NCBI GenBank assembly: GCA_016748015.1
Contig: JAAOMT010000706.1
Coordinates: 44,577 to 108,576 of the forward strand
Source of the DNA: Geosiphon pyriformis uo1
Taxonomy: Eukaryota > Fungi > Glomeromycota
Direction: 5' to 3'
DNA: 64,000 bases
Part shown: piece by piece, positions 4,455-54,900 of the stretch
Layout: every line of letters begins with the position of its first letter
How positions within the stretch are numbered: the stretch's first letter is position 1
Notes under the pieces: model-generated
Seen by the model: only the letters and a program-made list of their open reading frames with translations
Database searches by the model: none
Told to the model about the DNA's origin: nothing
Program-made: the position numbers and the translations under genes

Positions 4455-4485
<31 letters not shown>

Positions 4486-11179: not shown

Positions 11180-12460
11180 AATAGCAATAACAAAGCCAAC
11201 AGTAGCTTCATAATTAAAGAACAGTTTTGATTTATCATACTGAATAGTAAAAAAACTTTTTTTGAAAAAACTTTTAACTTTTTATTGGGAATTTTGGACA
11301 AAAAAGAAAAAGAAGTTTTTTTTTTTTTGTAATTATTTGGTTTTTTTATTTAAATAATAATATTTTTTTCTTTAAAATTAAGCTTTTGTAAAATTATAAT
11401 TGAAGATTGGTTATTTTTTTTAATGTTTTTAATTATTAAAATATTTATTATTAAGTTTAATAGGTCTAAAAAACAATATTAAAAAGATATTATAGCTAAT
11501 AAATTATTTTATAATATAAAATTAAGTTTTTTTTTTATAAATTATTTAACTTATTATAAAAATTTTTGGTTTAATAATTAATTTGTTTTGTTTAAATACA
11601 GTATTTTAATATTTAATTGTTTATTAATTTATAAAATAAATAAATATTAAAAAAAAAATTTTTATAAATGTAATTTTTAGCTTTAATTAAATTTTTAAAA
11701 TAACTATAATAATAATATTACTTTTTTTTAAATAATTTGTTTGATAATTATATTTATAACTTAATTTATTTTTATAAACTAATAAGTTTTTTTAAAAAAA
11801 ATAACTCAGAAATTTTTTATAATTAGTTTGTTAAATAAATATATATTTATATTTTTATAAGTAATATTGTTTTTTATTTATATATTAATTCAAATAATAT
11901 AAATTAAAAATATTATATATTAATATATATTTGGTTTATGATAATATTTTTTAATATATATTATTTAATAAAATATATTAAATTATATAATTTATATGTT
12001 TTTTATATAGAATTAGATATAAATAAATAAATTTTAAGCATTTTTAGATATTATAATATTATTAATCATAATAATTTTTTTTAATACTAATTAATAATAT
12101 AAAAAATAATATATAATATAACAAAAAAATAAATTGACTTTATTATTGTTTATATTACTTAAATAATTTTTAATTTTAACTTATTTAACATTTAAATTTT
12201 TGTTATATATAATATTAAAAATGTGTTTTCTCTTAATTTAACATTAATTATAAAAATTTAAAAAAAAATATATTAAGTTTAGTTTTATAAATAGCTAAAA
12301 CTGCTTAATTATTTAATAAATAATAATTATATTATAAATTAAAATTTATTTTAAAGATAAAACAATAACATATAATTTAATTAATATTAAAAATATTAAA
12401 TTATAAATTTTTATATTTATATTTATATTTAAATTAAAAAAATACACAAAAATATTATCA

Positions 12461-15400
12461 TTTTTTATTATTATTATATTTAATGAATAAAGTTTAAATA
12501 CTATTTAGTATAATACATCAAACTAAGTAATTTAAACTAAATATAAATTATGTATTTAACTATATATAACCAGTTATTTAAGCCAATTAAGACAATATTA
12601 TATATTTATATATATAAAAATTATATTCTTAATATCTGAAAAAAATGAACAAAATTTGTATATTAAAACCAATCTTAAAAATTTTAGCAATTCTAAACAG
12701 CTTAATTATATTGTCAGATAGCAAAAATAACAAGCTAATAACAACTCTAAAAATAATTTTATTTTATAAAATCAGACTATTTTTTTCCATAAAAGCTTGA
12801 TATTTAAAACAAACAAGCCAAATATTATTTTTATAATTCAGTCCAAAACTATATATAAAGTTTACAATCTTACAACTAGCTATTTTAGCATCTTTAAAAA
12901 CCGAAAAAAATTCTTAAAACCAGTTTTTAAAAACAAATCTCTTATAAAAAGTTAAATACACAACAATATTAAAAAAAACACAAAAAAAACAATTATAAAA
13001 CAAATAAAAAAAACTTAAACAGATCAGAAAATATTTTTTAAATAGTCATATAAATATCTAATAGCTTTTGTAAGTCTCACTATCTAATTTATAAGAAAAA
13101 ATGTAATTTAAAAACTTAATATTTCTATAAAACAAACATAAAACACTATAATAGTATTTATTATATAAATACTTATAAATAATTATAAACAGTTTGTAAT
13201 ATAAAGTAAATATAAAATAAAAACATGTTTTAACTGTAATTTTGCTTATAAATTCAGCCAATATATAGAAATCAGAATATCATATTAGTAATAATTTGAT
13301 CCAGTTTATGTTCTCAAATAAGCTGTCTTTTAAAACACAAGTTTTAAATTTAATCTCTCAATAAATATAATAGATTGTTTAAAAAATTTTATAAATAAAA
13401 CACTTTATATTTTCTAAAACAATTTTATAACTAGTTTTAATAAAATATTTATATAAACAAACTAAAAATATTACATCTAAAAATAAAATATTATTAACCA
13501 AACTATTAGCTTTTTTATTATTTAGAACACTTATATAGCTCTTAATTTTGTGCCAATTGATACTTAAATTTTTTTTAATAATATTTACAATGTGTTAATA
13601 CTTGATTTAACATTAATTATAAAAATCTGATGATACCAAAACTAACTCCAAATAATATGTATTTAAAGTTATTAGTTATTAAAAATAGCTCAATTATACA
13701 AGAAAAAAAAATACACTTCAAAACAAATACAATAGCCTACAATTTAACAATAATAAAAAAATTAATTTAAATACTATAATACTTAAATTAAAATTTACAT
13801 TCTTAAAAAAAGCTATAACACTAATCTTTATTTTAGTAATATTTAAATTATTTATAAAATTATCAATATAAACAGAAAAGCAGATCATATTAGTGCCCAA
13901 CAACTAATTATAAATCAAATTAAATTTATACAAACCAAAAATATATAAAAACTAAAAGTCATTAGTCAAAAATAAAATAATAGAGCAAAAAAACCAATTT
14001 ATTTAAAAATTTAATAACAAATTTGAACAAAGCCATAAAAATTTAGTCTTTCTAATATTTAAAAGTTTTTTAATTAAAAATATTACTTTTTTTATCATAT
14101 AACTGTTTAATATAGGTAATATTAAACTATTTAAGTAAGTAGAATATTTCAAAGAAAACAAATTTATTCAAAACAATTAACATTAAAGTATTATTTCAAA
14201 AACAAAATACTAAACATAAAAAATTAACTAAAGACAAATCATAATTATGAAAGATACAAATTATACTAACCAGAAAATTGTTTATTAGACTAACTTTAAA
14301 ACAAATCAAAAAGCACAAAAAATAATAGAAAAACCAGTTTAAAACTTGTAAATCAAAAAATTTATGATTAAACAAACGGCTCAAAATGTTACATGTATTA
14401 AAAAAACTTAGCATAAAAGCCAACTTGTTTTTAATATATATCTGTTTGAAAGTTTTTAAGTCATACAAAAAAGAATAATAAATTGTATTATTTGAAAAGT
14501 CTAAAAATAAACAAGATTTAGATTTTAAGTTCTTATAAATCATAGTATTCTATTTATTACACACACTATTAGAAACAAAACTAAATTGAATTCTATAACT
14601 GATAATAAAATATAGTATTGTCAAAACTAAATAAAGAAATTGTTTGTTAAAAATAGTTTTTTTTTAAATTTTGCCAGCAAAAAATTTAATATTTGAATAA
14701 GTTTTTACCAAATTAAGCTTTAATAAACCTTTTATTAAAAAAAATACCTAAATATTTGTAAGGTTTCTTTTTCTTAACTATTGAAATAAGCAAACTACTG
14801 ATTAACAAAAAAAATTTGCAACTTTATAGTTAATTAAAATGACCACTATTTTATTATTATTAATTAAGATATTATTAACCCAAAAAAACTTACTTATAAT
14901 GTTCAAAATATATTGAATTATAATTTAACTGTTGTTTACTTAAATAGTATTATTGACAAATATATTAATAACAAAAAAAGATGTTATATTAACTTGATTT
15001 TTTATATGTCTTATCTTAATTATAAACTTAAAATTGATCTTGTATTTATATACACTTTTTTGCTTTTTGACTTCACACAGCAGAAAATCATAAAAAATAT
15101 GCCAAAAAAGAGAAAAAAACACTTTATTCTAATCCAATCTATTATGTATTAATATTTATTTATTAAGCTAAAGTTTGTGATTTTTTTCCAAAATGTTTTT
15201 TATAACAAACTAATAGTAAAAATCAAAAATTGTGTAGTTATTTTTTTTAAAACTGAGAAATTATTCTCATAAAAAACATTATGTTTACTACAAACCAAAA
15301 AACTTTTGTTCAAAAAAGTTTATAAGCAGTCTCAATTAGTACAATAGATTTTGTGTTGGTTAAAACTTTTTTTTACTCATATAGCTTAAGAATTATTAAC

Positions 15401-16420
15401 ATTTAAGCTTCCTTTTAAAACTAAAAAACCGATTTACTTATTAAGCAACTGTTAAAAAAATTCAGCAAAAAGCCCAAAACTAAAAGATTACAATGTTTTT
15501 AAAGTTTATTAGATATTCCAAACAAACCAAAAGCTTTCTCATTTAAAAACTCTATTATAATACTTAATATTTTATCAAAGCCAATCTTATTTATAATACC
15601 AAAAAAAACATCATTAGTTAAATAAGTTAAGAGCAAGTACTATTAATGTTAATTATCTAAAATATTCTTTAATATTCACACTTCTTTGTTTATCTTTTTA
15701 TAATTAAATCTATTTAAAACTTAACTTTTTCAGACTTCAGCACCAAATTCTTACCATTCACCAAATAATTCAAAATCATCTTGCAAAAAAAACACTCCAA
15801 AATACTCTTGATAGTGTAGTCTTTGTTAACTTTAAAACTTTTTATTCTCTTATTAATAACAGTATAAATTTTTACAACTTTAGCTCACTAAAATTCAGCA
15901 AGCTTTAACACATGATATATTTTCTCAATATTAACTAACTTAAATCTGACTGTATTAAGATTGACACCCAATGCCAAAAGATCTCGAACATAACATATAT
16001 ATAGATTATCAAATAACAACCAACAAAAAATTAAATCATTTAACTCACAATTAAAGCCCAAATATAAAGTTTGAACAATTTTAGATACTAAAACTTTCAA
16101 TTTGTGAAAGTGCAATAAAATTTTAGTGAAAACACTATTAAAATTCTTGCTTCAAGATTTGGAAAAACTTTATTGGCCAAAAATTAACAATTTTTTTAAT
16201 AATATTTTACATAGAATCTAAATCAAAAAGCTCTTTTGAGAGACCAATATATTTACCAAACACAATAATATTTGTCAGTATAGCATCCTTAAATTGAGTT
16301 TATATGGCTACATTAGCTCTCTTAAAGTTGTATTTCTATTAATTTTTGTTAACTTGTTTATAAAAAACACTCAAATACACATCTAAAATACCAAAAAAAT
16401 TAAAACTAAGACAAAAAATT
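12461..16420 (-). mobile_element. Second, 5'-truncated and heavily C>T/G>A-decayed copy of the same LINE family
   Basis: Collinear with about 4580-8710 by eye: the 3' UTR at 12480-12600 matches 4594-4715, FWHIFYDFLLCEVKKQ matches LWCIFYDPLLCEVKRQ, and FHKLKVLVSKIV matches FHKLKLLISKLV. It has a (TAA)n tail at about 12461-12478 and a deletion of about 155 bp in RT near 15180. Confidence 0.9.
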
Positions 16421-16940
16421 GTAATGTCTAAATAATTTTAATAAAAAATCTAACAAAATACATTTAGTTATTTATTTTTAAATTTGAATTACATTAATAC
16501 AACAAAAATTTATAGAAAATTTTTGAATAAATTCAAATAGTTTAAAAGATTTAATTATTAAGTTTTAAGTTAACTTATTAAAAATTTTGAATAGTATTTA
16601 ATAATAAATATAAATAATTTTAAATTAAATTAATAGATTAGAATGTAATAAAATTAAATATATATTAAGAATGTTAAATCTAATTTCTGAAATAAAATAC
16701 GTAATTTGCATTTGTAAAAAATAAATTAAGAATAATTATTTATTTTATATATAATTTTTAAAATATTTAGGTATAAAATCTGATAAACAAAAACAAAGTA
16801 TTTTTTTGATTGTTTAAAAACTCCTTAAAAATTATAATATTTTTATTTTATAATTAACAAATTTACTTTAGTGCCTAATAAATATGTACATGATTTTGGT
16901 TACAGCCAAAATAGCTTTTTATATATCATTTTTCTAAGCT

Positions 16941-19660
16941 ATGAGCAATAAAAAGAAAATTACTAAAGACAAAGTTAGTACTTCTTTGGCAGTCAATGCT
17001 GATTCGACTATAGAAAAAAAAGAAAAATAGATGAGAATCAAGATTCTATAATCCCTGAAATTAGTATATCTAATATATTTAACTTAAGTATATATCTTTT
17101 GAATTTAAAACTAACTCAAGGTAAAGTAGACTTGGTATAAGTATTATTTTTTGGAGAATTATTTATTGTCATCTACAAAAAAAATAGAGTTCAAAAACTT
17201 TGGCATTAATGATAAATCTGCCCAATATGATGTGGGCAAAAAAGAAGTTGAAGAAATCAAAAAGTGGGCTCTACAATAAGTTAATGAGTTTCTTAAAAAA
17301 AAGAGCAAAGAGTTATTCCTTATAAAAAAAAATTTTGATATAATTAAGACTAACAAAATATCTGGTCAAACCTTTCTGTTATTAACCAAAAAAAAACTTA
17401 TACAAAATGGCATGAAAAAAGAACCAATAATGGCAATTGTTACTTTGGTTAAAAAACTTAAAAGTGAAGAGCAAGGTAATTAGTGAGTGAATATTGTAAT
17501 CATCTGTTAATTTATGATCAAATATTAAGAAATAAGATCATATTGTGAGAATAATTAGAATGCATAACAACATACACATTAAGAGAAATATAGAATAAAG
17601 ATAATAAATATTATTATATCTGTTTTCGTCTATTATTTTGATATTTTGTTTACTACCTATTTTTTTTTCTTTCCTTTTTTTTCTTTTATAATTATGTTAA
17701 AAAAAGCTAAGTATTAGGTAAAGAAGATTTATACAGATAATACCAAAAGTAAAAGCAATAAGGCTTTAGTCACAGATACATTTAAGTACAAGTTTGTAAA
17801 CAACCAGAATTTTGTTGCCAACTTTTACAGTCACATCAAATTTTGTTTGTTAAAGTGTTACAAAAATGATAGTTATTCTCTATATATTATATTGATTCAA
17901 AGCTTCAACTATAGGATGTTCTGCCTTATCACAGAGATTGCACAAGATATCTATGTTTTATATGTGTGCTTTTGACCACCAAAGAGCACAGGCTATTCTT
18001 TTTCATCAAGCATTGCATTCAACATTCTTGAGGAAATGCAGTTCGCAAAAATCAGCTGGTTTGAAACATTTTTAGAATACACAGTTGCTGCACTTGGTTG
18101 TATAATTCAAGATAGTCTGACATTTTCCAAATATTAGAAAATACAGATGGATTTCAGCAAAGAGAAGAAGTTCTGAACTGACATTACTACTGACCTACAA
18201 CATGCACTTAATGTAAGTTTTCTAAAGATAAAAAGTATTTCCAAGCAACTATATATAACTTCTGAAGTACTCACACTCAAATTTATGCTGTGTCTAGATA
18301 AGTCACATATTCTGACTACAACAATTCACAAAACAAAGAAACAATCTCTATTTAGGATGATTTGATGTGCTTTGTAAAATATTAAATGAAAAACCTTTAT
18401 GTGTATTATATTAGATACAGCTAGTTGTCTGTCCAATTTCATACCAACTGTAAAACATGAATTTTTTCTGCAGCTTTCAAATATCAAGCCACTTAAGTTG
18501 CTTTTGCCATTCATTAATATTTCAATAATAGATGCATTGTTTATAGAACAAGTAGAAAATCTAACTGACAGATTTTTTCTAAGTCATGTCTTGTGGACTG
18601 CATTGCTTAAGTTTGGCATATCAATTAAAAAAGCAGTTGAAACCACAAAAACAAAGTTGTTTGGTGGCACTGCAATCAATTTGCTAAGCATTTTTTTTAC
18701 TGCTAAAACTAATAAACAGTTGGCCATGATTATTGTTATTATGTCTGTACTAATTTCTGTAAATATCTCATTATAATTGCATTTATTACATCTGCTAATA
18801 AATAGCTGCATGGCTATTTGTATTTCCATTAAAGAAAACAGAAGCCAAATGCTTATGATGTATCTATCTGAACTTATTTTTGCTGAAGCTATTATTAAAA
18901 AACAGTTATATGATACTAGTGAAAGTTCTTTAGCTGTTTGTAATATCATTTCAATGTGAATTCATTGATGCCAGTTACTATGACAAACTTGTTGCAAATA
19001 ATTACATAGTAGAATTGCTTACAAAAAAGTCAGGACAAAAATAGATTTTACACAAAAAAATTATCTTTCAAAGAATTCTTATCTTATTGTTTAGTAATTA
19101 TGATGCTCTAATTACAACTAACAATTCTTGAAAAGGATTGAAACTGGATAAATTATTACTGGAATTCATTCTATGCTTTAATCATTTTATATAGATAGAA
19201 TATATTCTAAACAGTAAATTGCTTTAAATGACTGTTTAAATAAAGTACAGTTGCAATTTTGAAGTTTAATTAACCTGACATTGACCTTTTTATTCTACTC
19301 AAATGATGAAATGCTCAATTTACATATGTTACAAAATCAGTAAAAAACAGAAATGTTTTATAGGAAGGTTTTAATTATACCAAAAACTTAATTTATAAGA
19401 TAAAGCTGCAGTATATATTCAGAGAACAGAATGTGATGACACTGTTATCATTCTTACACTTATGTTTCTATTGATCCTTGGATGACAAAAAAAAAAGATT
19501 TTATCTGTTCAAGTAGATGAAGCAAGAGAAGTTTGATTAATACTTAGCTGTCTTTTCAATAATATCATTTGTCTGTATTTCTCCTAAGATTAAAGAACTG
19601 AATATAATACTAATAGCCTATGTTAGTCTATTTAATGACATGTGAAACAGTAAGACAGTT
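16941..19660 (+). pseudogene. Decayed SAM-like domain + P-loop NTPase gene (Crinkler-associated NTPase type architecture)
   Basis: 17245-17476 reads EVEEIKKWALQ*VNEFLKKKSKELFL..NFDIIKTNKISGQTFLLLTKKKLIQNGMKKEPIMAIVTLVKKL, a SAM-like pattern (W..V.FL...L...I.G..FL.LT...L..G). Degenerate Walker A QSFNYRMFCL at 17898-17927 (reverts to QSSGYGxSRL). Walker B-like FMLCLDKSH near 18280, then IILDTASCLSNF. Many stops. Ends are approximate. Confidence 0.7.
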
Positions 19661-20303
19661 ATAGACAGAATAACAATAGTAAAAAGTTTTGTTCTGTTAT
19701 ATTATTTATTAGACAATTGAAGTATATATTTTTATGTATGAAACAGCAATTATATAGTTTGCAGCTGGTTAAATTTTTTTGTAACAAGCTTTGTAATAAA
19801 AGCATATTGTTTTTAATTATTTTTTATTTGGCAAGCAATAAGCTTTTATAAATGATGATTTTTAATTATAATATCTGTATAATTAAAATTATTAAAAAAA
19901 AATATATTAGTTAAGTTGGCTTTTTATTTTCTTGTTCAAATTAATAGTAGTAATAATAATAATCTAATACAATTATTGTTAGCCCAAAAAATTTGATAAG
20001 TATTTAATATTGGGAATTTAATTGATAATTAATATTAAATAATGACTGTTTAAAAATAAGTACAAATTGCTAAAATTTTTATATATAACTGTTAAAAATA
20101 AATTTATAGTTTTTAAGTATTTTAATTAAACATAATATTACTAGAAATTATTTTGTAATATTGTTAATACCAATTTTATTTATTAATTATATTGTTAATA
20201 AAACTTTTAAAGTTTTATTTATTCACCAATTGATTTTAGGAAAATCTTATGTGATACATGTACATTATGAAAATAATATACTGAATTTAAAATAAGATTT
20301 GAG

Positions 20304-35159: not shown

Positions 35160-35690
35160 CATAAAAAAAAATGTTTGCAATATGCAAAAAATTATAAAGC
35201 TTCTGATTGGAGTCAAGTTATATTTTCAAATAAAAGCACAATTTTTTTAAACTAATCAACATTAAAAATTTGGCAGTTTTCTAGTAAACTGGTTAGGTTT
35301 TAAAACAATGTCAATGCTGATTTTATGGTTAAAAATATACAAGCAAGATTTTCTTTCATCTGTTTATATGCTTTATGAGAACAATTATATAGAGTGAATC
35401 TTGCAAGAAGATCCTAATTTGTAACATCATTCTTTAGAAGGAGGAAACTGATGTTAATGTCATTTCATGGACATCAATTTTACCTGACCAAGATCTAATT
35501 GAGCATTAGTGATCAGAATATTTTTTTTACCAGCTTATTGAGTTATGAATGGTATGTGATGAAAAAGAAATAAGTATTGGTGTTTTTAAAAACTGTTAAA
35601 CAAAAAAACGAAACTAGTGTAGCAGCATATTATTGAAAAATATTTTTATTAAAGTGATACAAAACATTTTGACGGGCTCACTCAAATTAT
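35160..35690 (+). mobile_element. Tc1/mariner-type (DDE_3) transposase relic
   Basis: CLQYAKNYKASDWSQVIFSNKSTIF (compare DWxxVIFSDES), ILQED.. and VNVISWTSILPDQDLIEH* (compare WPxxSPDLNPIEHxW). Fragmentary; no TIR pair confirmed. Confidence 0.75.
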
Positions 35691-38272: not shown

Positions 38273-39140
38273 ATTTATTTCTCGCGACTGTTTGGAATTT
38301 AATAAGAGAAGATAAAGTCGTGGTGGCGTACAAAATCTTTTAACAAAACTACCACAATATGATCAATAATTAGATTGCCTTCTAACATTAAATATATTTC
38401 TTTTTAAAATTAAATGAAATTTTGAAGAACCAATTTAAATTTATGTGAATAATATTTTGAAATCTTTTAGTCACAATTCATCTTTTTTTATTTATTAAAT
38501 AATCATAGGTAAATAACCCTTATTTATTCAATAATCAAATTATATGGTTAATAAATTTTGAAAATTCAGAAATCAAATTTTTGAAGCAAAATATCAATGA
38601 TTATTTCAAACACAAAAAGTTTTTCAATATTTCAAAATAAACCCCATCCTTATAAACTAACTTTCAAGTCTTTGTGATTTTTTAGTTCTTATTTGATTTT
38701 TATTCCCAAAGTTTTTTTCGCTGAAAACCCTTTTAATAAATGAATCATTCCTTTTGAAAAATTTAGAATTTTAATATTTTGTTAACTTAGGACAACTGAT
38801 TATTATTAACCTAAAAATATGACTTTGATATAACAGTCTTCCAGGCCTGGATTCATTTTATTCTGACGAATTAAATTAAACAGGAATTTAGTGTCACCTG
38901 AAAATTCTAATTGGATTTACATTTCTAACCCAATATATAAATAAGGAAAATATGAGTTATATTTTATTCAAAAAGTATATGTTTTATCAAGAATTTTTGA
39001 AATTGAATTCTCGAAAACATTAATACATAAATTTTATTCACAACAAACTATTCGAAAACACAATCAATTTGATTAAAACAAATATGAGAAAATCCATAAT
39101 ATTGTAAAACATCAATATTCAAGTTCGTTTTACAAATAAT

Positions 39141-40703: not shown

Positions 40704-40730
40704 GATGATGATGATGATGATGATGATGAT
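40702..40730 (+). repeat. (ATG)n microsatellite, i.e. (ATC)n in the 5' UTR abutting the NmrA-like start codon
   Basis: atgatgatg... run directly adjacent to the minus-strand ATG at 40703. Confidence 0.85.
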
Positions 40731-41573
40731 AATGATTAAGAGACTTGGAACGATAAAAAATTTCTTCGTTCGCCCAAGACCTAATATATCATAAAATTCT
40801 TTGCGGATCAACCAATCAGCATGAAACAATTCTGTCGTTATTGAATAGCATAATAATAGGTATAAAACCTGTTCGATTATTAATAATCTTGAATGGATTA
40901 GTTTTGTGTGTTGATCAAGTATTACAACATTCCAAATTATTTTATCTCAATTATTAAGTTGCTAGAAATTCATGACAAATACAAAATCGGCGGCAGATAT
41001 TTAACCATTTGAGATAAAATCACGTCATCTATTGCATTCTGAACAAAGACTTGTCCGAACTCATCTATTTTCTGGCAAATTCCAACTGGTCTTGTTAAAG
41101 AAAATATATGCAATAATTACTGAAAAAAATCTATTTATTTAATATGACCATTCTCATGTGCAGTGAGAAGAAAATAATATTGCGTTTATTGATTATATAT
41201 TAATTTAATATTCTTTAATAAATATATGTAAAATTATATTAAATTATTGTTATGTTTAATTTTTTTCATTTAATTATATAATGATTTTATCAATCAAGGT
41301 GCCATAAAATCTAGTAATAAAAATTAATTGTCAAAATTATTGAGCTTATAGCAAAAGTCATCATAAAAATAATAACTGTTCTTATATTTAAGGTTAAATA
41401 TAACATCAACTAGAATCAACATAATAGAACAAACAAGAAAACTATATTAAATCGGAACCCGAGTGAACCATTTATTCTTAATCATTGCATCGAGGTCGTA
41501 CAATTTCTAGGATCACTTGTTGATGAAACTTCAATTTAAATAATAAAACATTAAATTTACAATTAACTTACTC

Positions 41574-41646
41574 GCCTTCTTAGCTCAGTTGGGAGAGCGT
41601 TAGACTGAAGATCTAAAGGTCCTGTGTTCAATCCACAGAGGGGGCA
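41574..41646 (+). tRNA. tRNA-Phe(GAA): tRNA-Phe(GAA), intronless
   Basis: GCCTTCT-TA-GCTC-AGTTGGGA-GAGC-G-TTAGA-CTGAAGA-TCTAA-AGGTC-CTGTG-TTCAATC-CACAG-AGGGGGC-A. 73 nt, all four stems pair, anticodon GAA. Confidence 0.97.
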
Positions 41647-42835
41647 AATGCTGTAAAATCCCATAACGTAATTCATCCATTATCAGTTTTTTAATCAAGG
41701 AATTAACGAAATTATTATGGTCCGATTTTTACCAGATTGGGATTCTTGAAAATAAATTCTATTAATGAAGCATAATTCACGTGTTTCAGATTTATTAATA
41801 TTTTTGGCAAAGTTAATAAATAATATTTCTATTAAAAATTTATTTAAGATAATAAATGTTATTATAACTTATAAAGTATTTTATTATGTTAATAAGATAA
41901 TTTATTACAAAATTAATAAATGAAGAAAATTGCCATAATCAACTATCGTTGAGCTATTAATTTTAATTATCATTTGTTGAGCTATTAATTTTAAATTATC
42001 ATTTATTGACAATTAATAATAATTTATATATTCGTTTTTTTTTTAAAAAATAAATTTACATTTTTGATACTTCTATAAAGAATTATTTTTATTTTTTTAT
42101 TTTATTGTGCATACACGATGTATTTTGATTTAATTATATTTAAAGTTATAATCGATTTTTATATTTTTTATAAAATGAAAATAACTTTGAAATTTTTAAT
42201 AATGTTAATTTTTTAAAATATTTGATCAAAAATTTTACTGTATTAAAATACGGTTTTTTACAAATTTAGATAAAATTTAATTTTCATTCCATTAAACTTT
42301 TATTACAACTTAAAAAATCAAATATTTAAGAACAAGGCTATTCAAAATATTCAAAATATTCAAAACAAACACCAAATCCAAAAGCTTGAGAAACTTTATT
42401 CTTCAAAACAATGAGAAAAGATGAAAGGCATTGTCTAAATAATTTTAAGAACTGGAATGTTTCGATTAACCTAAATCAACGGTAGTTTAATTCTTTGGCA
42501 TGAAGGCGAATAAGAATTAAGTATCAAGTTCTTTGGGTGTCTGCGATTTAATTACAATTTTCATCTTAAACTGTGAAATCGGAGACCTAAATTTCTTGTC
42601 GAAAATGATCGCATACAATTTTACAGAAGCATCACTGAATGTCAATGAGCATTCTCTTTTAACTTTGCAAGTAACCCAATAAGTGCAAAAAAAAGGCTTG
42701 AAACATTTATACTATCAAAATAATTCAAGTTACATGACGAATTAGGAACCTGGAAAGATTCCTTAAACGTACCACGGTTGGGACAAGAAATTCTTGGGAA
42801 AGCATAGTTTTGTATAAAAAATATATATAAGGCTT

Positions 42836-44409
42836 TTAACTAGATGAGAACATTCGATTATAAATATTTTTTTCTTTTTGCTGTGACTGTTTTTTCGCTT
42901 GCAGGATTTTATCGTGCAAAAGTCTAAGGGTGTTATCGTTACTAGCGATCTAGATGAGATGCGGGAAATGTAATAATGAGACCGAAATTTTGTGAACTTA
43001 TTTGTTAGGACAATTTCGAAGTGTTTGAATAAAAGATACCTGTAATCCCAAATTAACCTGCTCAATGGCTTTGTCGAACTCATTTTTACCGAGTAAGGCT
43101 TGCCCAAGGCGATAGATAGCTTTTATATTCTGAGGGTCTTGCTTGAGTACCTTCAATGTACCTTTATCTTAATAAAGTTTCTTTGTCTTTGAATTAAGCC
43201 TTACAGGGAAAATTTTCTTACTTCTCGAGAAAATTCCTCAGCTTTAGCGAAATCTTGAAGGGCCAATAGACATGCAGCTGTGTTGGAATTGAGGACAACA
43301 AATAAACTACGGTATTCTTCATTGATAAGTTTTTTGGTAGGGGTCTTCAATTGATCTTTGATATTGGGTTGACGAACTACATCTGGAGAATTTTGAGAGT
43401 AATACGTAGCTTCCTCTTCTATATATCTTAGAGACTGAAAGAAAGAGGTTAAGCAACAGGTATTGATTGAAATAATAAGAAACTTATTAGATCAAATATC
43501 CCAATAGAACCTTTTTATATAACTCGATGGCTCTTTGAAATTCATTCTTTTTAAAGAATTGATTCCCCTCTTCTTTTAGTTTTTTGAGTTTGATCAACCT
43601 GTGTTTCAAGGGTTCCTGTTTTTGAGATTTTTTAAATTGGCCATGGAGATAACAAATATCAGATGATTTAATGCTATAGTAGGAATTTTACATCAGTGCA
43701 GCGCAGTATTTCGATTTCGTAGTTTATCTCTGTATGTGGTGGTATTAACGGTGGAGACCCAATTGATCCAAAAGCTAATTAAAGAGAAATAATAATAATA
43801 ATAATGAACAAGAAGTTTTGACGCGAGTCCTTCATTGAAGATATTGATCGATTGAGCGAAAACACCATAACCAAATTTTACAACTTACACTAACCATATT
43901 CCGCGGCAATTAAGACTTCAGCCTTCTCTCCAACACACATGGAATTGAGTGCCTCTTCAAGTCCACGAATCACCTGGCCTTAAGGTTTGATTGCAAGAAT
44001 AAAAGCGAATTAATCAACACAGCTTCAGTCGATCTCCTATAGAAATCAGCTCGCAAAAGAAGCTACCTGAGCCAAGCTGGAAAGTTGTAGGCAATCCTCC
44101 TCGCTCTGCAGAAGAGTCAATTACTTCTTCTTCTTCTTCTTTTTCTTCTTCTTCTTCTTCACATGATTCGTTCCGTTCAACCTTCTCGCCCCTTTTCTTT
44201 GTGACTATCTTTCCTGTATAAAGCACTGTAATAAAAAAGATGAATTTTCAAAATTCGGAATTTTGCATTCTCAATCAAGTTGAAGCAATAAGTTTTGCCT
44301 ATTACTTCCCAGAAACAAAAGATCTCGGTGCAACCGTGGGCCCACTTCCTTCTCTTATAATGCGTTTCTTGACGCCTTTATCATCAGTTATTGGTTTAAA
44401 TTCTGTCAT
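42836..44409 (-). CDS. FKBP-type PPIase domain + TPR co-chaperone (large immunophilin)
   Basis: MTEFKPITDDKGVKKRIIREGSG..FVS|VLYTG...IDSS..PTTFQLGS|GQVIRGLEEALNSMCVGEKAEVLIAAEY|AFGSIGSPPLIPPHTEINYEIEIL. TPR part LKEEGNQFFKKNEFQRAIELYKK...LNSNTAACLL...DPQNIKAIYRLGQA...EKNIYNRMFSSS*. The first intron needs a non-canonical donor (see findings). Confidence 0.9.
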
Positions 44410-45127
44410 AAGGGTTTTGATGAGAGGAATCTAACAGCTACAGAAGTTTTTTTAACTATGGGATGCCTTGTACACAACTGATTTGCTGATCACAAACGAT
44501 GAATATATAAATTGATCATCTTGAGATATCACTTATTTAATGGCCTAGTGCATGAGCCAAATTAGACGCAACAAGGTACCCTCATTTTCCAGTGATCTTT
44601 ATAGAAAGGAAAGGATAAACATTAAAGAAAATCCAACTCTGAAGCTTCTTGAGAATCAGGGATCAGATAGTTGGGCCTCGTCATGGAAATCCCATAAGGG
44701 ATCGGTCGGAAATTTGAAAATTACGGATAAGGGTACTGGAATATAAGTAGTATCTTGAGGCTATTAAAAATCGCATAAATATGGGGAATTTTATTTGAAG
44801 CTTTTATACATAAAGAAGGATAAATACGATTTTTGTCTAACAAAATTTCAAATAAAACCGTCAAATTACAACTGACTTGACCTTGGTCAAGAACGAGTGT
44901 CCATGTTCACAAAAAGAGACTCATGCAAGAATATTATTTTAAACAAAACAATTCGGAATCTAAAGGTTGATAAAATAGAAGGCAATCAAGACCAATCCCA
45001 AATGGTCATATTCTCAAATGAATATCAAAAAAATAAGATGGAAAATGCAATAAATCCACCAGGTGTCCTCCAAATACATACCATTCTCTGCTACCATAAG
45101 AGATATAGAAATCCTAAGATCTTGTTT

Positions 45128-46761
45128 TCACCTTAAAGAACCAGACTCGAAAGATCGTGGACCAGTATAGCCAATAAGCCCGAGATATTGGAGATCAATA
45201 TTATCCTCGTCACCCTCCGACCGTAATAGTTTGACAAGAACAAATTTTCCAGACCTTTTTAAGAAAATAAAATTATTTTCGAGTTACAGCTTATGAAAAA
45301 ACATCAAGGATAAAATACGCATTGAATACCGTGTCGGACTGAAAGTATGGGATGTGTAATATGTTGAAGAGTCCAAGTGAAAATACGCAGCTGGCCAACC
45401 GTCTTCTATTCTTCCATTTTCACCACTTTCTATAAGAGCATCGTAATCGGAACGGGTAAAATCGTCATATTTTGAAGTGGCTTTTAGTCAAGATTGTTGA
45501 AAACAATCAAAGAGAATTTCAGTTTTTTAAATTGTTTGACAAAAAAAATGTAAAAGTTGAATAGTTTCATACCTTCCAAAGATATGGGCTCATGGGAAAC
45601 AAAAATGAGGCCTTCTTTACCTTTAAGGGGACAAAATAATGAGATGATGCAAATTAAAATAAAGATGCATTTATAAGTAAAAAAATAATTGATTGAGGAC
45701 ATACATGGGGCAGTATAACCATGTGTCGGTGCTTTTACCACAATTTTTGTGAGGACAAAAGCTGAATCCATGACATCCTGAGTTTGATCGTTGAATCGAA
45801 GTATGATATTGATGTTGGTACTCTTTTTGGAACTAAAGAAATCACTCAATTTTTAAAATCACACCGATGTATGTATAGAACGAAGGTTATGGAATCGAAA
45901 AATGAAGTACCAACCAATACACGAGATTATCGTTTCTAAGTATATTCTCAACATTGTACGCCTCGCTGTGTAATAGAAAAGTAGATCATGTTAGGCCATT
46001 GAGACAATATTAATCATCAAAAAATGTTTCTATTGTGAGGATGTTTTGATGGAGTTCCTTCGTTAGCTCTCTTTCAAAATTCTGAGATTGTGTTGCTTAT
46101 CATGAAAATTGTATCGACGCTGAAAATAGAAGACCAGCAAAAAATTGAAGGTCTGATTTTCCAATCTGCAATTCCCTAGACCCCGAGGTATAATTTTGTG
46201 GTACAACATTTTCAAGGGAAATTGCCATCGATATTGATAACACTGAGCCATGGTCATTGATCACTATTCTCTTCTCGCTTAGGTATAAAACCTTGCAACA
46301 AATTACCTATAAAATCCACCATCACAGTATATAACGTTGAAGCATAGCGGAAACTCGCCGGTCGTATTGTATGTGTTACGCCATTTTCTCTTCAATCTAT
46401 TGTCTCGTATGGAACTTCGCCTATGCAAAGCAAGTGATCCAGCACGCGTAGGTGAAGTTTGTCGACTAGTAGTAGCGTGTTGCAAGCTCCGGGAATTTAA
46501 TAATTCGTCAAATCCTTCATTTCGACTTGAAGAACTATTATTACTTAGTGACTGAATAAAGGTTTGGAAGGTGTTTGAACGGGATAATTGGTGTAGCAGT
46601 GCTGAAGAAAAAGGCGGCGGTGGCGTTCCTGTTGTTGTTGCTGCTGGTTGAGATATTAGACTGTTTTGCGGGGCTGAATCTGAAGTTGTAGAGTTACTGC
46701 TATCACTCGACAAGGGAATCTCTGTCAGGTCTAAAAAATTATGGTTTGAAGTTACTCTCAT
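45128..46761 (-). CDS. Uncharacterised protein: Ser-rich low-complexity N-terminus plus a conserved-looking beta-rich C-terminal domain
   Basis: Exons splice in frame: ...FPLCFNVIYCDGGFY|SEAYNVENILRNDNSCYC|SKKSTNINIILRF...FVLTKIVVKAPTHGYTAP|CKEGLIFVSHEPISLE|ATSKYDDF...PAAYF...PT|RSGKFVLVKLLRSEGDEDNIDLQYLGLIGYTGPRSFESGSLR* (TGA 45130-45128). Confidence 0.85.
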
Positions 46762-47199
46762 TTCCTTTTTGAATTGTTAGATTCACAAGTAAGTTTGGTT
46801 ATTCGCTCTGTGATTTTCACTTCCAAAGTGAGTCCTGTAACGGATGGCTGTTATGTAACGTTAGTATCCCTAAGAAACTTAAAGCTTTGAAGAAAATTTT
46901 ATGGTTAAGTGTCCCGGCACTCGAGCTCTTTTTTACGCCCAAATTGACAATGTAATCGACACTTGCAAATTCTATTGACTGTGAATGATCTCCGAATCAT
47001 AATAATAGAACATCTAGTCAAATTGAAACTAGCTTGATTTAGTTCCGACTCCGACTGGATGTCGTGACTTGTCTTACTGCACATAGTTCCCATGATCAAA
47101 ATCATCACTGGGAAAGAGAACAATATTGATTGAAAACAATGCATTTAAAAGTTCATAATTGATAAAGTTGAAAATAAATAATTCAAATATTTAAAAAAA

Positions 47200-50100
47200 T
47201 GGTTTAAACAAACATGTATTCTAAATTTATAAAAACAAATATGCATAAAAACAAATTTAATTATTAAATTATAAAAAACTCAAGTTTTTTAAATATTTGT
47301 TTACATATTTTCTTATAATTTTTTTTAATACTATAATTATCAATTTTAAAATATTGAAATCAAATAAAAATAATATTTTGTAATTTAGAAAAGTTATTAA
47401 ACAGTTAGAATAATTTAAGTTATCTAATTTGAAATTTTTAATAAATTCGTCTTAAGAAGAAACACAATATTTAAAAATAAAATAATTTTTATTAAAAGTT
47501 TTTTGGTATTATTTTGCAAATATTATAATTAAATATGTGAAATTATTATTTTTATTTGCTAAAGGTGTAGTCCAACCACTGACTATTCTCATATAACCTA
47601 ATTATTATACATTAGACATAACCAGCTACTGGAATTTATTATTCATTTATTTATTTTATTAAATTAATAAATGCATTAAATATTTATGTTAACATTAAAT
47701 TATAATTAATCATAACATTTTACCTAAATTGATTTTTGATAATAAACAATAAATATAAATAATAATATTATCATTTTCAATAATTTTTTATTTGTACTAT
47801 TGTAACATATTATTAATTAAAAATTAGTTATGTTAAAAAATATTTATAGTTGAATGCTTAAAAGATTTAAGTTTTTATTATCTAAATAAACATTTTGTCA
47901 AACAAAAAATTCATGATATCGCTTTATTAAAAAGTAAATTATTTTTTTAATATTAATATTTGATTAAAAATATACTAAATTATCATTTTAATTTAATACA
48001 TTTAAATAAAGTTTTTTAAAAAAAAACCTTTTTTTATTTTATATTTTCATAATTACATTCAAATCAATAAAAAAATACACCTTTTTATTTCTGTTAGTTT
48101 AATAGTTTTAATACTCAAAAAATCTTTTTGGAAATAAAAACAGCTAAACAGCATTTTTTTAAAATGCTTTTCTTAAATAATAAAAACACAAAATAGTTTT
48201 TAATTACTAAAAAGCACTATTTTTAACTTTAATTAGAAGTTTTTCTTTTTTTAATTTTTTTAAATAATTAACTAAAGCCAATTCTAACAAGTTCTAAGAT
48301 TTTTAATAGCAAACTAGTAAATAAATTATTATTTTTTGAACAACTTTTCTTATTATTGCTTAAATAACCAAAAAAACCAAAGAAACAACGTTTTTTTTTA
48401 AAATATCTAAAATAATATTTTTAAATTATTATTTTTAATTTGTAGTCTGTTTTTTCTTGTAAAAAATAATTTATTGGCTTTTTTAATTTTACTTATATTT
48501 TTATTAATTGTTTTATAATTGTATTAATCATAGTTCTTATTTTTAATCTAACTATAAGCAAAAATTTTTTTATTTTAAATAACAATAACAATAATAATAA
48601 TAACATATTATTAAAACTAATTCAGATTAGCATATAACTAAATTACTTAATATATTAAAGTTTATTTATTAATTTTAAAAACAAAACAAATTATGTTTTT
48701 ATATATAATTTTAATTAATCAATTTATTAAATTACCTAATTTCTATATAATATTATTAAAATTTTTTTTTGTTTTATAATGATTATTTTATTATTGATTT
48801 ATTATTGATTTATTATTTATAAGTTGTTATCAAAATTTTGGTTTAATTTTGCTAATATAATATATCTTTTAAATATTTAATTAAGATATTAAGTTAATAT
48901 TTAAATTCAAGTTTTTTAAATAATTGTTATTTGGTTTTAATATAGAAAGTTTTTAAATATAATAATTTAAGTTTTGGAAAATTGTTTAAAATTTTTTGTT
49001 TATTAATCTCAATAATTAAATATTTTGGATTTATAAATTACAAAAAATCATTTTTTTAAGCAATAATAATAATATAGTTAAACAATTGTAAAGTAACAAA
49101 AAAAATAATTTTTTTTTAAGTATTTATTTTAGTTAAAAAAAATTGTTTTTGTGAATTTAATTTTTATTTTAAGTATTAAAACTATTATTATGTTAAATAT
49201 TTATTGTAAAATATATTTTTAGAAATATTTATTGTATTATTCTATGTTTTTGAATGATAATTTTTTAAATTAATATAAATAATAATAAATTATTTATTAT
49301 TTTAAAAAACTTTAATAATTTTAATTTAAACTGGTTGAATTTCATCTAAATTATCTAAAATTTATTTAAGATACATGAATTTTAGCTTAAATTACATAAA
49401 TTTTAGTTTGAATTACTTAAAATTGCTCTTGTATTAAAAGCTCAGAGTTTTATATGTTCTTGTAAAATAAAAATACTTATTTTGTATTAATTTAATAAAT
49501 ATTCTAGTAAATATGAAAATAAAATCTGTAATATTAGAATTAAATTAATTTTTGGTTTATAATTTTGATTAACAATCTCGTTAATTTTAAATAATTTTTG
49601 ATTAATAATATCAATAATTTTAGGGAATTGCTAAATCGACCCACCCGCAGCACGTGATATTATTTTACGTCATAGTTTCGTATTCAACTATATATAGAAA
49701 CATATTAACGAATATTATGGTTGTCCACAACGAAGTGTTTTTTAATTATAAAACACTATAAATTACTTAAGGCATAAGAAAAAATTAAATATATAATCTA
49801 TATTCAATTTTATATAAGAAAAAGTTATTTTTTATTTTAATTAAACTAATATTTATTAGAATTACTAATAAATAAATATTAAAATTCTATATATATTAAT
49901 ATCACGTGTTGCGGGTGATTTAGCAATTCCCTAATTTTATTTTATTGTTAACAATACAATTAACTTTATTTATACTAAACTTTAAATATAGTAACCAAAA
50001 ATTGCCATGACCAAATTTTTATAATTAATAAATGAATTCAAATTCATTTTTTTGAATTTTTATATCTAATTTGCTCTTTTTATAACGAATTTTCACATAA

Positions 50101-53100
50101 ACATATATAATATTATGTGTAATATAACACAAAATTTCGTTTTTAATTAAATATATTTGAATAAAAATACATTAATAAATATTATTCTTAAAAAAATTAT
50201 AAAAAAATTAGATTTTTACCAAATATTTTAATCTTATAATTAAAATAATGTTATAATATTTGATAATTATATTATATAATGCTATAATAAATATAGCAAA
50301 AACATGATTTAATGTATAATAACAAATTATACATAATTGTTAATTAAAAACTGGCATTTTTTAAAAAAACAATTACAAAATCTTTTGATATTAATAGAAA
50401 TAAGAAGAAAAATTTGGAAATACTTCTTAATATAGTAATAATCTTTTAGTAAATAAATATATTCACATTGAAAATGAAAATATTTGAACAGATTTTACTA
50501 ATAAAAATATTTATTCAAAAAAATTAAAATAAAAAAAAAATTAAAACAGTAAAAAAAATTGAAATAAAAAATAAAATAATATTTAAAACATTAATAAATA
50601 CAGTTTTAAAGTATTTATATTAACAAAAATCAAATTTGGTAAAATTAATAAAAAAGTAAAAATTTTAAGAAAATTAATTAAATAAATTAGATTAGTTATT
50701 CAAAAAAATTTAAAAAACTAATTCTAATTATTATTTTAAGAATAAAATAATTGAGGAGTTTTAGTAATTTATTTTTATTTATTTTTATTTTTATTTTTAT
50801 TTATATTTATATTTATTTATTTTCTATTTATATTTATTATTATAATTAAAGTAATTTTTATAAACTTTTTATTAATAAATATATAATAAATTGTTATTTT
50901 TTTTAAAATTATGTCTTGTTATTTGATAAAAAAATTGACCAAAATTAAATAAATTATATATATTATTATTATATAATATATTTAATTAATTATAACAAAC
51001 TTTGATTATAACCAATAAAAAATTCTCATAACAAAAAATTCAATAAAATAAAGTTAATTATAATTATTATATAAATTTTATTTGATAACAATAGTTTAAT
51101 TGGTTTAAAATTAATTATTAAGAACAATATTAAGCTTTATTATATAAAATTTGCATTTTAAGTTTTTTTAAATATGATTATTCTAATTAAACGTATTAAA
51201 TTACTTTTTATTATTATTTTTAAAATTGCTAAAATTTTTATAATTTCTGAATTTAATATTGTTTTTGTTGTTATTACTTTTTTAATGTTTTTTTAAATAT
51301 TATTACAAATAATATTAAAATATTAGATAGCGGTTGGACTTCACTCGTTAAATTGCATTAATAAAAAAAATATATTAAAATAGTTTAGATGTTTTTAATA
51401 GAGTTTTTAATATTAAATTAAAATAGATTGGCTAATAACAATATAATATTATGTATTTTAAGTTTTAAATTATTGTTATTATAGTATATTGATTAATTTT
51501 AGTAAAAAAACAATTTAATTAAAAAGAAGTTATTATTTTAAAATATATTTTTAAAACCAAGTTGATAAATTTTAGCTGTATTAATTTTGAAATTAGTAAA
51601 TTAGTTTCTTAAATAAAGAATTATATTTATATTATTTTTTAATTTCTAAATTCTATTTAATGTAATTATTAATTTTAGTTTTTAGAAAAATTAAATATTT
51701 AAAAAAAGCCAAATTTAACAAAAAACTTTTGTTTATTGGTACTGTTTTAAGTATTAAAATTTAAATTATTTGGTTTTTAATTAAATTTGTAATAATTCTT
51801 AAAATTTTAAAAGTTAATTTATTAGTATAAAATTACATATAAAAGCTGTTATTTTTTGAATTTTTAATTTTTGTCATTAATTTTATACAATTTAAAATTG
51901 GCTTCTTTAAAATTTTAATTGGTAAAATTGTTTTTATTGATTAAATTTATTGGTTTTGGTTGTTTTTATTACAATATTAATAAATATTTTTAAAAAAGTT
52001 GTATATAATTTAAATAAAAAAATAACTAATCTTAAAATAAATAATATATTTAATAATATAAATATTAATAAAAAACTTTTGTTAAAATAATAATTATAAA
52101 AATTTTAAATTTTTAATATTTAGTTTAATATAAATATAATAATTATATAAATAATAAATTAATTTTAAATAACAATAATTTTATTAATATTATAATTAAA
52201 CTAAGTAAATTAAGTAGGTTTTTTTTATAAATTTTAATGTAATATAGTTTTAATTAATTTAAATAACTGTTTATTTATAAAAAATATATAAATTATACTT
52301 ATTTTAAAGTTTATTATAATTATATTGTTATAGTTAAAACCTTTATTTTTTAGTTTTATTTATTTATTTAATTATAATTAATTATATGTATTAGTTACTA
52401 ATATTATTAATTAATCATTTTATTTTTAAAAATAATCATTAATGTAATTATTGACATGATTAATAACTTGATTAATAACTTAATTATTGATTAAATTATT
52501 GATATAATTACTAATTTAATTTTAAATATTTAATTTAATATTTTAAATTCGTAATTTTCAAAAAATTATTATTTAAACAAATATTTTTTTATTAACAATA
52601 TAATTTAAATCAACTATATTTTTTCTTTTAATTTTAATATTTATCTTAAAATTTATTACTTTTTTGTTTAAATTACCAACAATTCTTTTAAATATAACAA
52701 TATTTTTTTCAATTATAAAAAAAAATTTTTATTTTAGCATTTAAAAAAATTAAACAATTTTGTAATTAAAAAATTGAAATTTTAAAGAAGTTAAAACTAA
52801 TAACAAATTTAACAATATTAAAAAATAAAAAAAACAACAGTTTTAATAAAAAAATTTTAAAAAATAAAATACAAACATTTTCAATTAAAAATTAAATGAT
52901 TTAAATTTTAATACTTAAAACAGTATTAATATTTAAAAGTTTTTTATTTGATATAGCTTTTTTTTAAAATATTAATCTTGATAACAATAGTATTTAATCA
53001 AATTAAAATTCAAAAATAAAAATAATAATATATTTTAATAATTAAAAAGAATTAAGAAACCAAAAATTAAAACAACTATAATCACAAACTTGAGAAATTA

Positions 53101-54900
53101 ATTTTATTAATCTTAAAGATAATACAATCAAAAAAAATATTTATTAATTTAATCTTAAATACATTTTTAAAAATAATAATTTTTTTTAATTTAGAAAAAA
53201 ATTTTAATATTATTTTTTATTACTTTAATTGATTAACAAATAAAAACAATTTTAACAGTTTTATAAAACCTAAAATATACAATAATATATTATTAACCAA
53301 TATATTTTAAATAAATTCTGAAAATTTTATCAAAATACTTAAAACATTTTTAATATTATTTATAAAAAGTATAAAAAAACATTATATAATATAATAACAA
53401 CAAAAACAGAAACAAATGTTTTATAAATTTAAGAATAACAAAAAAATAATTAATAAACAAAATTTAAGCAATAATATTCAAAAAAAAGCTTAACATTAGT
53501 TTTAAAAACTGATTTCATATCACTAAAATTATATATAGACTAAAAAACAGTCTTAATATAAGCCAACTTAATTTTAAAAAAGATATTGAATTCCAAAATA
53601 CAGATCATTTATTCAGTATATCTTTAATAATTAATAATTATTTTCTAAGTGTTTCTAAAAATATTATTATCGAAAAACAAAAAAGAAAAAAAATTTTTAA
53701 TCTTTATTTTGAAAACCAAATAATTTTATTGTTATTATTTAAAACAGATAATCGATTGTTATTTACAACCATAATAAAATTTAAATAATATAATTAATGT
53801 TAATAATACAATACTAACAGAAAAACCAAAAAAAATAAAAGAAATAACCAGCTTCAAAACAATAGAACTAATATTAAAAACATCAGTAATTTTTTTTTAG
53901 CATTTTAAAAAATTACTATTAGATATAGCAAAAGATTAAAGAGTTTGTTTCTTAGCAGTTTTAGTCTTTTTGGTCATTTGAGAAATAGTAAAAAAAAAAT
54001 TTAATTAAGTTAAAAAACATGGCTAATTATATGTTAAAATATATAAATTGAATTTAATATAAATATATATTTATTAAATATATTTAAATAATATTATATA
54101 GAATTAAAAAAATTAAATTTTACTGTTTTTTGTTAGTTTCCTTAACTAGTTTTTATAAAAAATTTTAATTTAATATGTTTTATAGTATAATAATTAATTA
54201 TTACATAATTACAATTTCGAATTCTATAATTGGATGACTGATTATGTTGAAAATATATGATCCACATTTATATTAACTAATTTGTAACTAAAATAAACAG
54301 TAAAAAAATCACATTTTGTCAAAGCAATAAAATAATAATAATTATGTAAAAATGTACAAGTTTTAAACATAATATTTTAATAAACAACCAAAAAAAAATG
54401 GTTAAATAATAAATTTTCTAACAAATTTTTTGAATATTATGTATAATTTTGGTTTTTATTTAATATATTTTATTTTATACACAAATTATTTTAACTTTTA
54501 TTGATTATTATTTTTATAAATAACAAAATAGTTAATCTTATTATTAGCATATTATATTTATTTTTAATATAATTTTACAAACTTTTGCATAAACATAATT
54601 TAACATAAAAATAATGTAATAATATTATATATAATTTAAAACAAATAATATTTTAAATTTATAAAAAAGTTTTTTTGTTATTTCTTAAATTTTAATTATT
54701 ATTACCAGTTGAAAGTTAGATTTTAAAAATAATTTAATATTTTATAATAATTTATTTAATTTTCAATTATTTAATTTAGTTATTTAATAATTCATTTTTA
54801 ATAATAATAATTATTTAATATTGTTAAAAAAATTAATATTACATAAATTTATATAAAAAACGCTTTTTCTTTTAAAAAATATATGGTAGTGAAAATTCAG
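47200..54900. repeat. A/T desert made of extremely decayed repeat relics
   Basis: Almost no G/C. Internal degenerate inverted homologies (51420-51782 vs 52883-53310; 48350-48395 vs 53940-53990) show it derives from repeated DNA. The family cannot be identified by eye. Confidence 0.65.
49623..49931. mobile_element. 309-bp MITE / non-autonomous TIR element with 8-bp TSD
   Basis: Left end GGGAATTGCTAAATC-GACCC-ACCCGCAGCACGTGATATTA; right end reverse complement GGGAATTGCTAAATC-ACCCGCAACACGTGATATTA. Flanked by the direct repeat TAATTTTA at 49615-49622 and 49932-49939. No ORF. Confidence 0.9.

Follow-up and report, generated by a model that had tools for sequence, protein, structure and literature searches.

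The 64,000-nt window described here (Geosiphon pyriformis uo1, contig JAAOMT010000706.1, positions 44,577 to 108,576) contains fungal genes with short introns, including lipases, a kinase domain and a Sel1-repeat protein, together with copies of a long interspersed nuclear element (LINE) and four stretches of very low GC content, the A/T deserts. A preliminary description of the window had proposed a two-strand C-to-T hypermutation of its repeats that spares ApC/GpT and is distinct from RIP (repeat-induced point mutation). The analysis bears out a two-strand, repeat-confined loss of C beyond CpG decay, in which CpG (about 68% lost) goes far ahead of TpC (9-13%), which in turn exceeds CpC, ApC and GpC (5-8%). 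The load differs from copy to copy and ends at sharp element edges, and the non-CpG loss is coupled to the CpG loss.

LINE copy A (4590..11300, minus strand) carries open reading frame 1 (ORF1) and ORF2 (endonuclease, reverse transcriptase (RT) and RNase H). It is lightly decayed, with a GC content of 40% and a CpG observed/expected ratio (o/e) of 0.28, and served as the context reference. Its ORF2 occupies a single frame (9375-4728) with 16 stops; as described earlier for Trp codons, 10 of the 16 are TAG, and 6 of 33 Trp codons have become stops. The Pfam matches of copy A are weak (RVT_1 1e-5, RNase_H 0.004, Exo_endo_phos 0.002-0.008) and all lie under the curated cut-off. LINE copy B (12480..16400, minus strand) is heavily decayed (GC 19%, CpG o/e 0.12) and belongs to a subfamily other than that of copy A, which it matches by blastn at E 3e-156 and 5e-46. 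Among the matches listed in three homologue searches, all named LINE homologues are hypothetical proteins of G. pyriformis (all 34, at least 120 out of 533, and all 86), and the same species was the source of 9/9 tested among 148 further LINE representatives; searches for relatives in metagenomes gave 251 and 359 pattern matches, none of which was confirmed. Several hundred hypothetical proteins annotated for G. pyriformis (P0001-P0374) are gene calls on dead LINE copies, and the proteome of this species is inflated as a result.

Desert 1 (3300..4560; GC 9.3%) borders directly on the 3' terminus of copy A. Within desert 2 (11330..12460, minus strand; GC 7.3%) there is a near-terminal relic of the LINE, from the RNase H region, at 12139-12261 on the minus strand (tblastn E 1.3e-5). 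An ORF1-like relic lies in desert 3 (47200..54900; GC 12.4%), at 53459-53644 on the minus strand (tblastn E 6e-6). At the edge of desert 4 (60440..61900; GC 12.0%) lies a short LINE RT relic (60252..60447, plus strand; tblastn E 1.5e-11) with a decay-aware DNA score of 184 against 54-61 for shuffled sequence. Fourteen decay-aware scans with copy A found a single further relic, and most of deserts 1, 3 and 4 matched no transposable element (TE) family. An alignment between deserts 1 and 2 was ruled out as A/T noise by its absent transition excess. Where copy A ends on its 3' side (~4590), the GC fraction climbs from 0.06 to 0.32-0.44 in the space of 50-100 nt, and at most other edges it changes over about 100-200 nt. 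Since the GC content jumps sharply at element edges, the mutation load is a property of the element and not of its neighbourhood.

Two further structures were seen in desert 3. At 51251-53417 there are two inverted-repeat pairs (I1 and I3) with a complementarity of 74-76%, which point to a palindromic or head-to-head element that has since decayed. At 49621-49933, an element of ~310 nt with terminal inverted repeats of ~35 nt, each containing CACGTG, retains its CpGs (the bin contains 10, against an expectation of 4.6) and is likely a young miniature inverted-repeat transposable element or a protected site.

The mutation spectrum was obtained by placing 154 named LINE proteins on the codons of copy A, with sequence context read from copy A DNA, and then clustering them; changes were scored against the majority of the respective cluster for 8 clusters with a total of 106 proteins, and the remaining 48 proteins, in smaller clusters, were excluded. 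Non-CpG C>T changes occurred at 2884 of 38999 sites (7.4%), as against 397 of 57247 (0.69%) for T>C and 0.08-0.19% for each transversion, which makes them ~11x as frequent as T>C and ~40x as frequent as any single transversion. By context, the rates (in %) are highest after T (TCA 13.1, TCC 10.2, TCT 9.1); the other contexts are those after C (CCT 8.4, CCA 5.9, CCC 5.7), after A (ACA 7.6, ACC 5.8, ACT 5.0) and after G (GCA 6.5, GCT 5.4, GCC 5.2). At sites that could never have been CpG, the corresponding values by 5' base are 9.5% for T, 7.3% for C, 5.5% for A and 5.3% for G, and TpC is lost on both strands (coding 8.9%, template 11.0%). The TpC rate exceeds those of ApC and GpC in all 8 clusters. 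Sites preceded by a purine (RpC) are nonetheless mutated at 5-8%, ~30x a transversion.

A regression over +-4 nt (969/1021 sites, CpG and sites >35% removed) assigned an odds ratio of 1.70 (1.47-2.0) to a T at -1, 1.0 (0.86-1.19) to C and 0.9 to G; a T at -3, -2, +2 or +3 also raises the rate, but less. The effect of the 3' base is small: relative to A, the values for C and T at +1 are 0.85 and 0.83, so that CpA is hit ~1.2x as often as CpC or CpT. The expectation that YpC would mutate above RpC therefore holds for TpC and is not supported for CpC, among whose contexts only CCT is raised. The bias was replicated in 220 further proteins polarised by nearest neighbour, in which D>N (492/2509, 19.6%) and E>K (415/2188, 19.0%) exceed the comparison changes V>I/M (624/5067, 12.3%), A>T (326/3404, 9.6%) and G>S/R (318/3270, 9.7%). 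A DNA alignment from copy A to copy B gives the order CpG 39/47 (83%), TpC 163/218 (75%), CpC 120/180 (67%), ApC 108/190 (57%) and GpC 98/176 (56%), counts that are confounded by subfamily divergence. In contigs of one sequencing run, 16,724 records of the large LINE family showed 2646 transitions among 3105 variable places; sequence context was read for 40 rows, and the 28 C>T sites private to copy A (5' T 9, C 7, A 7, G 5) are too few to show a bias.

The same preference is visible in what survives in the deserts. The count reported earlier for 52021..52440 is exact, with 22 of 27 C/G residues in ApC/GpT, no GpA, no CpG and 3 TpC. This stretch is the most extreme part of desert 3; across whole deserts, the share of C preceded by A is 0.48-0.57 vs about 0.44-0.46 expected from base composition. 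The ApC excess itself stands: the AC/TC ratio lies above the range of 50-nt block shuffles in deserts 1 to 4, at 1.75 (0.75-1.62), 2.47 (0.82-1.83), 1.56 (0.95-1.19) and 1.82 (0.78-1.34), respectively. Elsewhere it is 0.62-0.84 in five genic or young-LINE intervals and 1.26 in the decayed-repeat interval 12460-20000. The survival ratio, defined as the non-CpG C:T odds after T relative to after A, is 0.47 (0.41-0.54) for the deserts (0.45, 0.36, 0.49 and 0.42 individually) and 0.47 for copy B. In GC-matched gene-proximal windows it ranges from 1.16 (0.97-1.38) to 1.43 (1.09-1.88), and in 10 GT-AG introns from 36000..47100 (4 of 14 hand-picked introns were dropped for wrong ends) it is 1.51 (1.01-2.26). 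The introns, being TpC-rich, thus show the opposite bias, and the depletion of TpC is limited to repeats, with a single-copy control that is compositional and not a mutation rate. GpC survives in the deserts even better than ApC, so the sparing is not specific to ApC as had been proposed; what is spared is RpC as a class, and the true signal is an extra loss of TpC.

A compositional artefact, in which A/T tract slippage or the ancestral base content of the LINE lies behind the ApC excess, is largely refuted by these data and is given almost no credence here. T runs could inflate the desert odds at neighbouring positions, and the hand-counted stretch is the extreme spot, but the bias was counted directly as substitutions in the 106 and 220 protein copies, the AC/TC ratio of the young LINE is 0.84, and GC-matched gene-proximal DNA is biased the opposite way. 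Composition can mislead in another respect. The deserts have a TpA/ApT of 1.03-1.08 and a (CpA+TpG)/(ApC+GpT) of 0.79-1.0, values that would pass the usual RIP index thresholds. The latter index is low because ApC survives, not because CpA is lost, and standard RIP indices would thus call the deserts positive for the wrong reason.

The gene-bearing DNA at 36000..47100 serves as a control in which CpG is kept near expectation in most 500-nt bins. A second control is the Sel1-repeat gene (29287..32826, minus strand), an open frame of 1179 codons with ~21 tandem 108-nt units of 83-91% mutual identity. It is not hypermutated: CpG o/e is 0.60, the survival ratio is 1.21, and the variant alleles among its units comprise 23 T>C, 14 C>T and 34 transversions. 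These linked duplications are therefore undamaged by hypermutation, although the array is possibly under selection. The frame (22 Pfam repeats) lies immediately upstream of a kinase-domain frame of 270 codons, and the two (28423-32826, minus strand) are probably a single spliced Sel1-kinase gene. Two distant class 3 lipase paralogues, at 21659-22967 (minus strand) and 36785-38124 (plus strand), are alike in intron layout. A 33-nt tandem repeat with at least 5 copies (63792-64000) continues past the window end.

Between the two extremes, the CpG-stripped relic region at 16400..20200 (CpG o/e 0.08; survival ratio 0.75, 0.63-0.90), which includes a weak SAM-like pseudogene (SAM_1 E 0.028, under cut-off), and the region 24500-27600 (survival ratio 0.74) look partly decayed and intermediate. 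Of the pseudogene lesions described earlier, SNKS was found at 35226 on the plus strand, and VYTN was found in RNase H at 5991 on the minus strand, where the family majority is D. The SNKS lesion belongs to a W..VIFSNKS motif in a decayed DNA-transposase-like relic (35100..35760, plus strand) that was presumed to be of Tc1 type, a label that Pfam leaves unconfirmed with 0 hits in 3 frames. A BTB/POZ-domain pseudogene at 2702-3301 (minus strand; Pfam E 1.5e-5) carries stops, from which it follows that decay also reaches multi-copy host gene families.

Because the CpG rows of the majority-filtered table are biased, CpG rates were taken instead from CGY Arg columns, load quartiles and a comparison of TCG with RCG. 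Of 2123 residues in these CGY columns, 670 are still Arg, and replacement by His is about as common as replacement by Cys, so both strands decay about alike; the decay of Arg to His, Cys, Gln or Trp is massive in the LINE copies, in agreement with the CpG-type changes noted previously. A 5' T has no effect on this decay (TCG vs RCG 1.14, 0.77-1.60; 16 vs 14 sites). Whichever of the four load quartiles is taken, the hazard of CpG amounts to 6.3-7.5x the non-CpG load (rho 0.66, n=90), a coupling that the shared age of copies would likewise yield, and distance to CpG has no effect on non-CpG loss. Given this near-constant ratio and the ~30-fold excess over transversions at RpC, a single broad process with a 1.7-fold preference for T is simpler than the separate, additional process that had been suggested. 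The deserts lie approximately near the equilibrium of the measured spectrum, with predicted vs observed C:T odds of 0.062 vs 0.080 after T and 0.14 vs 0.170 after A.

It is somewhat probable that a repeat-targeted methyltransferase of DIM-2/DNMT1 type, through CG and non-CG methylation followed by deamination, is the source of the C>T changes. Such an enzyme would methylate repeats in CG and non-CG contexts. If CG methylation were nearly saturated, the CpG rate would be blind to the 5' base, and if non-CG methylation were partial, mutation there would report the preference of the enzyme for a 5' T and pyrimidine-rich flanks. The methylcytosines would deaminate to T, spontaneously or with the help of an enzyme, and damage would accrue gradually during mitotic growth until old copies are ground down to about 10% GC. 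A bolder version, which we regard as rather unlikely, would give Geosiphon its own mutagenic defence outside Dikarya: a methyltransferase-type enzyme that actively converts C to T in repeats, reads the 5' T in a way not known from any described RIP-like system and drives every transposon family to about 10% GC, with each Mucoromycota lineage possibly using its own context variant.

Several observations weigh against a methylation-driven origin. The rates derive from one LINE family read through proteins, and the single-copy control rests on composition. In the DNA regression from copy A to copy B, -1T (1.33) is non-significant while -2T (1.72) is significant, and copy A on its own shows no TpC bias (small counts). 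The TpC/RpC ratio drops from 1.97 to 1.49 as load rises. The equilibrium prediction misses after C (0.106 vs 0.214 observed) and after G (0.082 vs 0.255 observed), possibly because survivors are clustered in less-decayed patches. Adjacent same-strand doubles number 59, against 34 in the simulation or about 43 once this is scaled for singles; they are made up of 40 Gly>Asn/Lys (26+-5 simulated) and 19 Pro>Phe (8+-3), and the opposite-strand control gives 14 vs 15. The excess is compatible with short processive patches or a small share of ultraviolet (UV) damage and is not decisive. Lastly, a literature search found no 5'T preference of DIM-2, and the mutations attributed to Dim2 in Zymoseptoria tritici fall at CpA and spare CpG, whereas here CpG is fastest and the non-CpG bias lies on the 5' side.

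Methylation could instead matter for CpG alone, with the remaining changes arising by spontaneous deamination of unmethylated C, the uracil being ill-repaired in silent chromatin and the 5'T effect stemming from stacking or a glycosylase. This is quite unlikely. The broad context, the involvement of both strands, the gradual load, its independence of distance to CpG and the smooth pyrimidine-flank effects across +-3 nt would all be expected; yet a rate 40x a transversion would seem to need a near-total regional loss of repair, and a chemical effect of the 5' T should appear at CpG, where the ratio is 1.14. UV damage at dipyrimidines, ill-repaired in heterochromatin, has also been considered as the source of the TpC surplus on top of methylation decay. 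The bladders of Geosiphon are borne on the surface of the soil, the surplus falls on TCA, TCC, TCT and CCT, pyrimidine flanks raise the rate, and after scaling for singles there are about 16 extra doubles of CC>TT type, roughly 2% of mutated CC codons. UV, however, barely touches RpC sites, which here are already at ~30x a transversion, so that C>T is not confined to dipyrimidines; methylated TpCpG is a UV hotspot, but TpCpG decays no faster than other CpG; T>C shows no dipyrimidine excess; and the introns are TpC-rich. A UV origin of the surplus is thus very unlikely.

The distribution of changes between strands bears on two further explanations. Individual copies show no strand skew (0.99 vs 0.97+-0.14). 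Neighbouring changes share a strand only slightly more often than simulated (0.551 vs 0.530+-0.006), and the two results together speak against cDNA editing and strong processive bursts. An APOBEC-like TpC deaminase acting on retroelements or on heterochromatic single-stranded DNA, the deaminase-like cause entertained in the preliminary description, would account for TCA being the top non-CpG context, which is favoured by APOBEC3A/B. The preference, however, is only 1.7x, cDNA editing is excluded by the near-equal load of the two strands within copies, and strand-coordinated clusters are lacking, same-strand clustering being weak; such an enzyme is highly improbable. A true RIP-like process is unlikely, though it has more in its favour. 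In this scenario, duplicates would be detected through their homology, perhaps during a cryptic sexual stage, and hit by methyltransferase-like C-to-T bursts with a 5'T preference. The ~40-fold excess over transversions, the sharp-edged confinement to repeats, the excess of same-strand neighbours and adjacent doubles, and the scarcity of near-identical copies among the 154 proteins (pairwise distance of 0.18 at the 1% quantile) all agree with it, and RID is stated to be present in the clade of arbuscular mycorrhizal (AM) fungi (PMC8298701). Against it, CpA is only about 1.2x CpC/CpT, strand skew is absent, load scales smoothly with CpG loss, and the ~21 linked Sel1 repeats are intact, though selection could mask damage there; in addition, 0 DNMT4/RID are listed for Rhizophagus irregularis (PMC12344493), and RIP signatures are reported as absent in Gigaspora margarita (10.1101/2021.03.30.436303) and unique to Ascomycota (PMC12543289).

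Published work on related fungi speaks in favour of a DIM-2/DNMT1-type methyltransferase. A supplementary table gives R. irregularis one DNMT1, two DIM2, no DNMT4 and no DNMT5 (PMC12344493), whereas the AM clade is elsewhere said to keep DNMT1, DNMT2, DNMT5, DIM-2 and RID (PMC8298701); the two papers conflict on RID. In R. irregularis, LC-MS (liquid chromatography coupled to mass spectrometry) places 32.5-49.5% of C as methylated (PMC8298701), and CG sites make up 13.8% of C (10.1101/2021.03.30.436303); taken across isolates and methods, these figures would require much non-CG 5-methylcytosine (5mC). In Phycomyces, which encodes DIM2, TEs carry CG and CHH 5mC (PMC11258239). The two AM methylome papers checked describe CG calls only. 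RIP signatures were undetected in G. margarita (10.1101/2021.03.30.436303), and a kingdom-wide screen of 1,239 genomes found RIP-like signatures in Ascomycota only (PMC12543289); Geosiphon has no row in its S1 table (12 of 19 supplementary files covered). The accessible text of PMC11952901, PMC13297926, PMC13443276 and PMC5751038 does not report the pattern. A literature search that did not extend to Venice 2020, Bewick 2019 or the papers on the genome and metagenome of Geosiphon found no account of non-CpG or TpC-biased repeat mutation for Glomeromycotina.

These repeats show non-CpG C>T of RIP-like size with a context set by the 5' base, while the fungal signatures compared are set by the 3' base or by TpCpG, and surveys locate RIP-like mutagenesis in Ascomycota, with none for Gigaspora. 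If a methyltransferase of the DIM-2/DNMT1 type is indeed responsible, substantial non-CG methylation would be predicted in Glomeromycotina, and the very high LC-MS figure would be reconciled with the small share of CG. The 16-context mutation table is directly comparable with a methylome. CpG-adjusted TE ages for this genome are likely inflated.

Comparison with known systems places the pattern more closely. All non-CG methylation of Z. tritici requires Dim2, and the enzyme increases mitotic C>T by a factor of over ten, at CpA and with CpG spared (PMC8016269). The likeness is that C>T is confined to TEs and extends beyond CpG, and that a related AM fungus is listed with a DIM2-class enzyme; here, however, CpG is not spared, and the methylation is presumed. 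CpA, CpT and CpG signatures have been tied to Dnmt1 classes (PMC4352252), and in TEs of Pucciniomycotina the TpCpG context is strict, for which an unusual preference in methylation has been proposed as a connection (Horns et al., 2012, PMC3318451). In both cases C>T in TEs is more frequent after a 5' T, but the effect is limited to CpG in Pucciniomycotina, while in the present repeats it is seen at non-CpG sites, which are strongly raised, and not at CpG. Plain decay of methylated CpG, as in genomes with Dnmt1 class IIA/Masc2 (PMC4352252) or in the CG-methylated TEs of R. irregularis, would resemble the present case in that CpG is fastest, about 68% being lost in copies that still give ORFs; it differs in that non-CpG C>T here, at ~40x a transversion, drives old copies to about 10% GC. 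Editing of the APOBEC3 type, which would be expected to leave highly selective TpC clusters specific to or coordinated on one strand, differs from the 1.7x preference seen here on both strands and with no skew. Canonical, RID-dependent RIP of Neurospora crassa and other Pezizomycotina shares the two-strand C>T, the confinement to repeats and the sharp-edged A/T-rich blocks, but here there is no strong CpA preference, CpG is dominant, no strand skew is seen per copy, adjacent doubles on one strand nevertheless being in excess, and linked Sel1 repeats are intact, though perhaps through selection. As the preliminary description anticipated, the context is neither that of CpA RIP nor that of TpCpG. 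RIP-like in outcome but matching neither of these contexts, the pattern is best filed as a variant of methylation-driven repeat mutagenesis.

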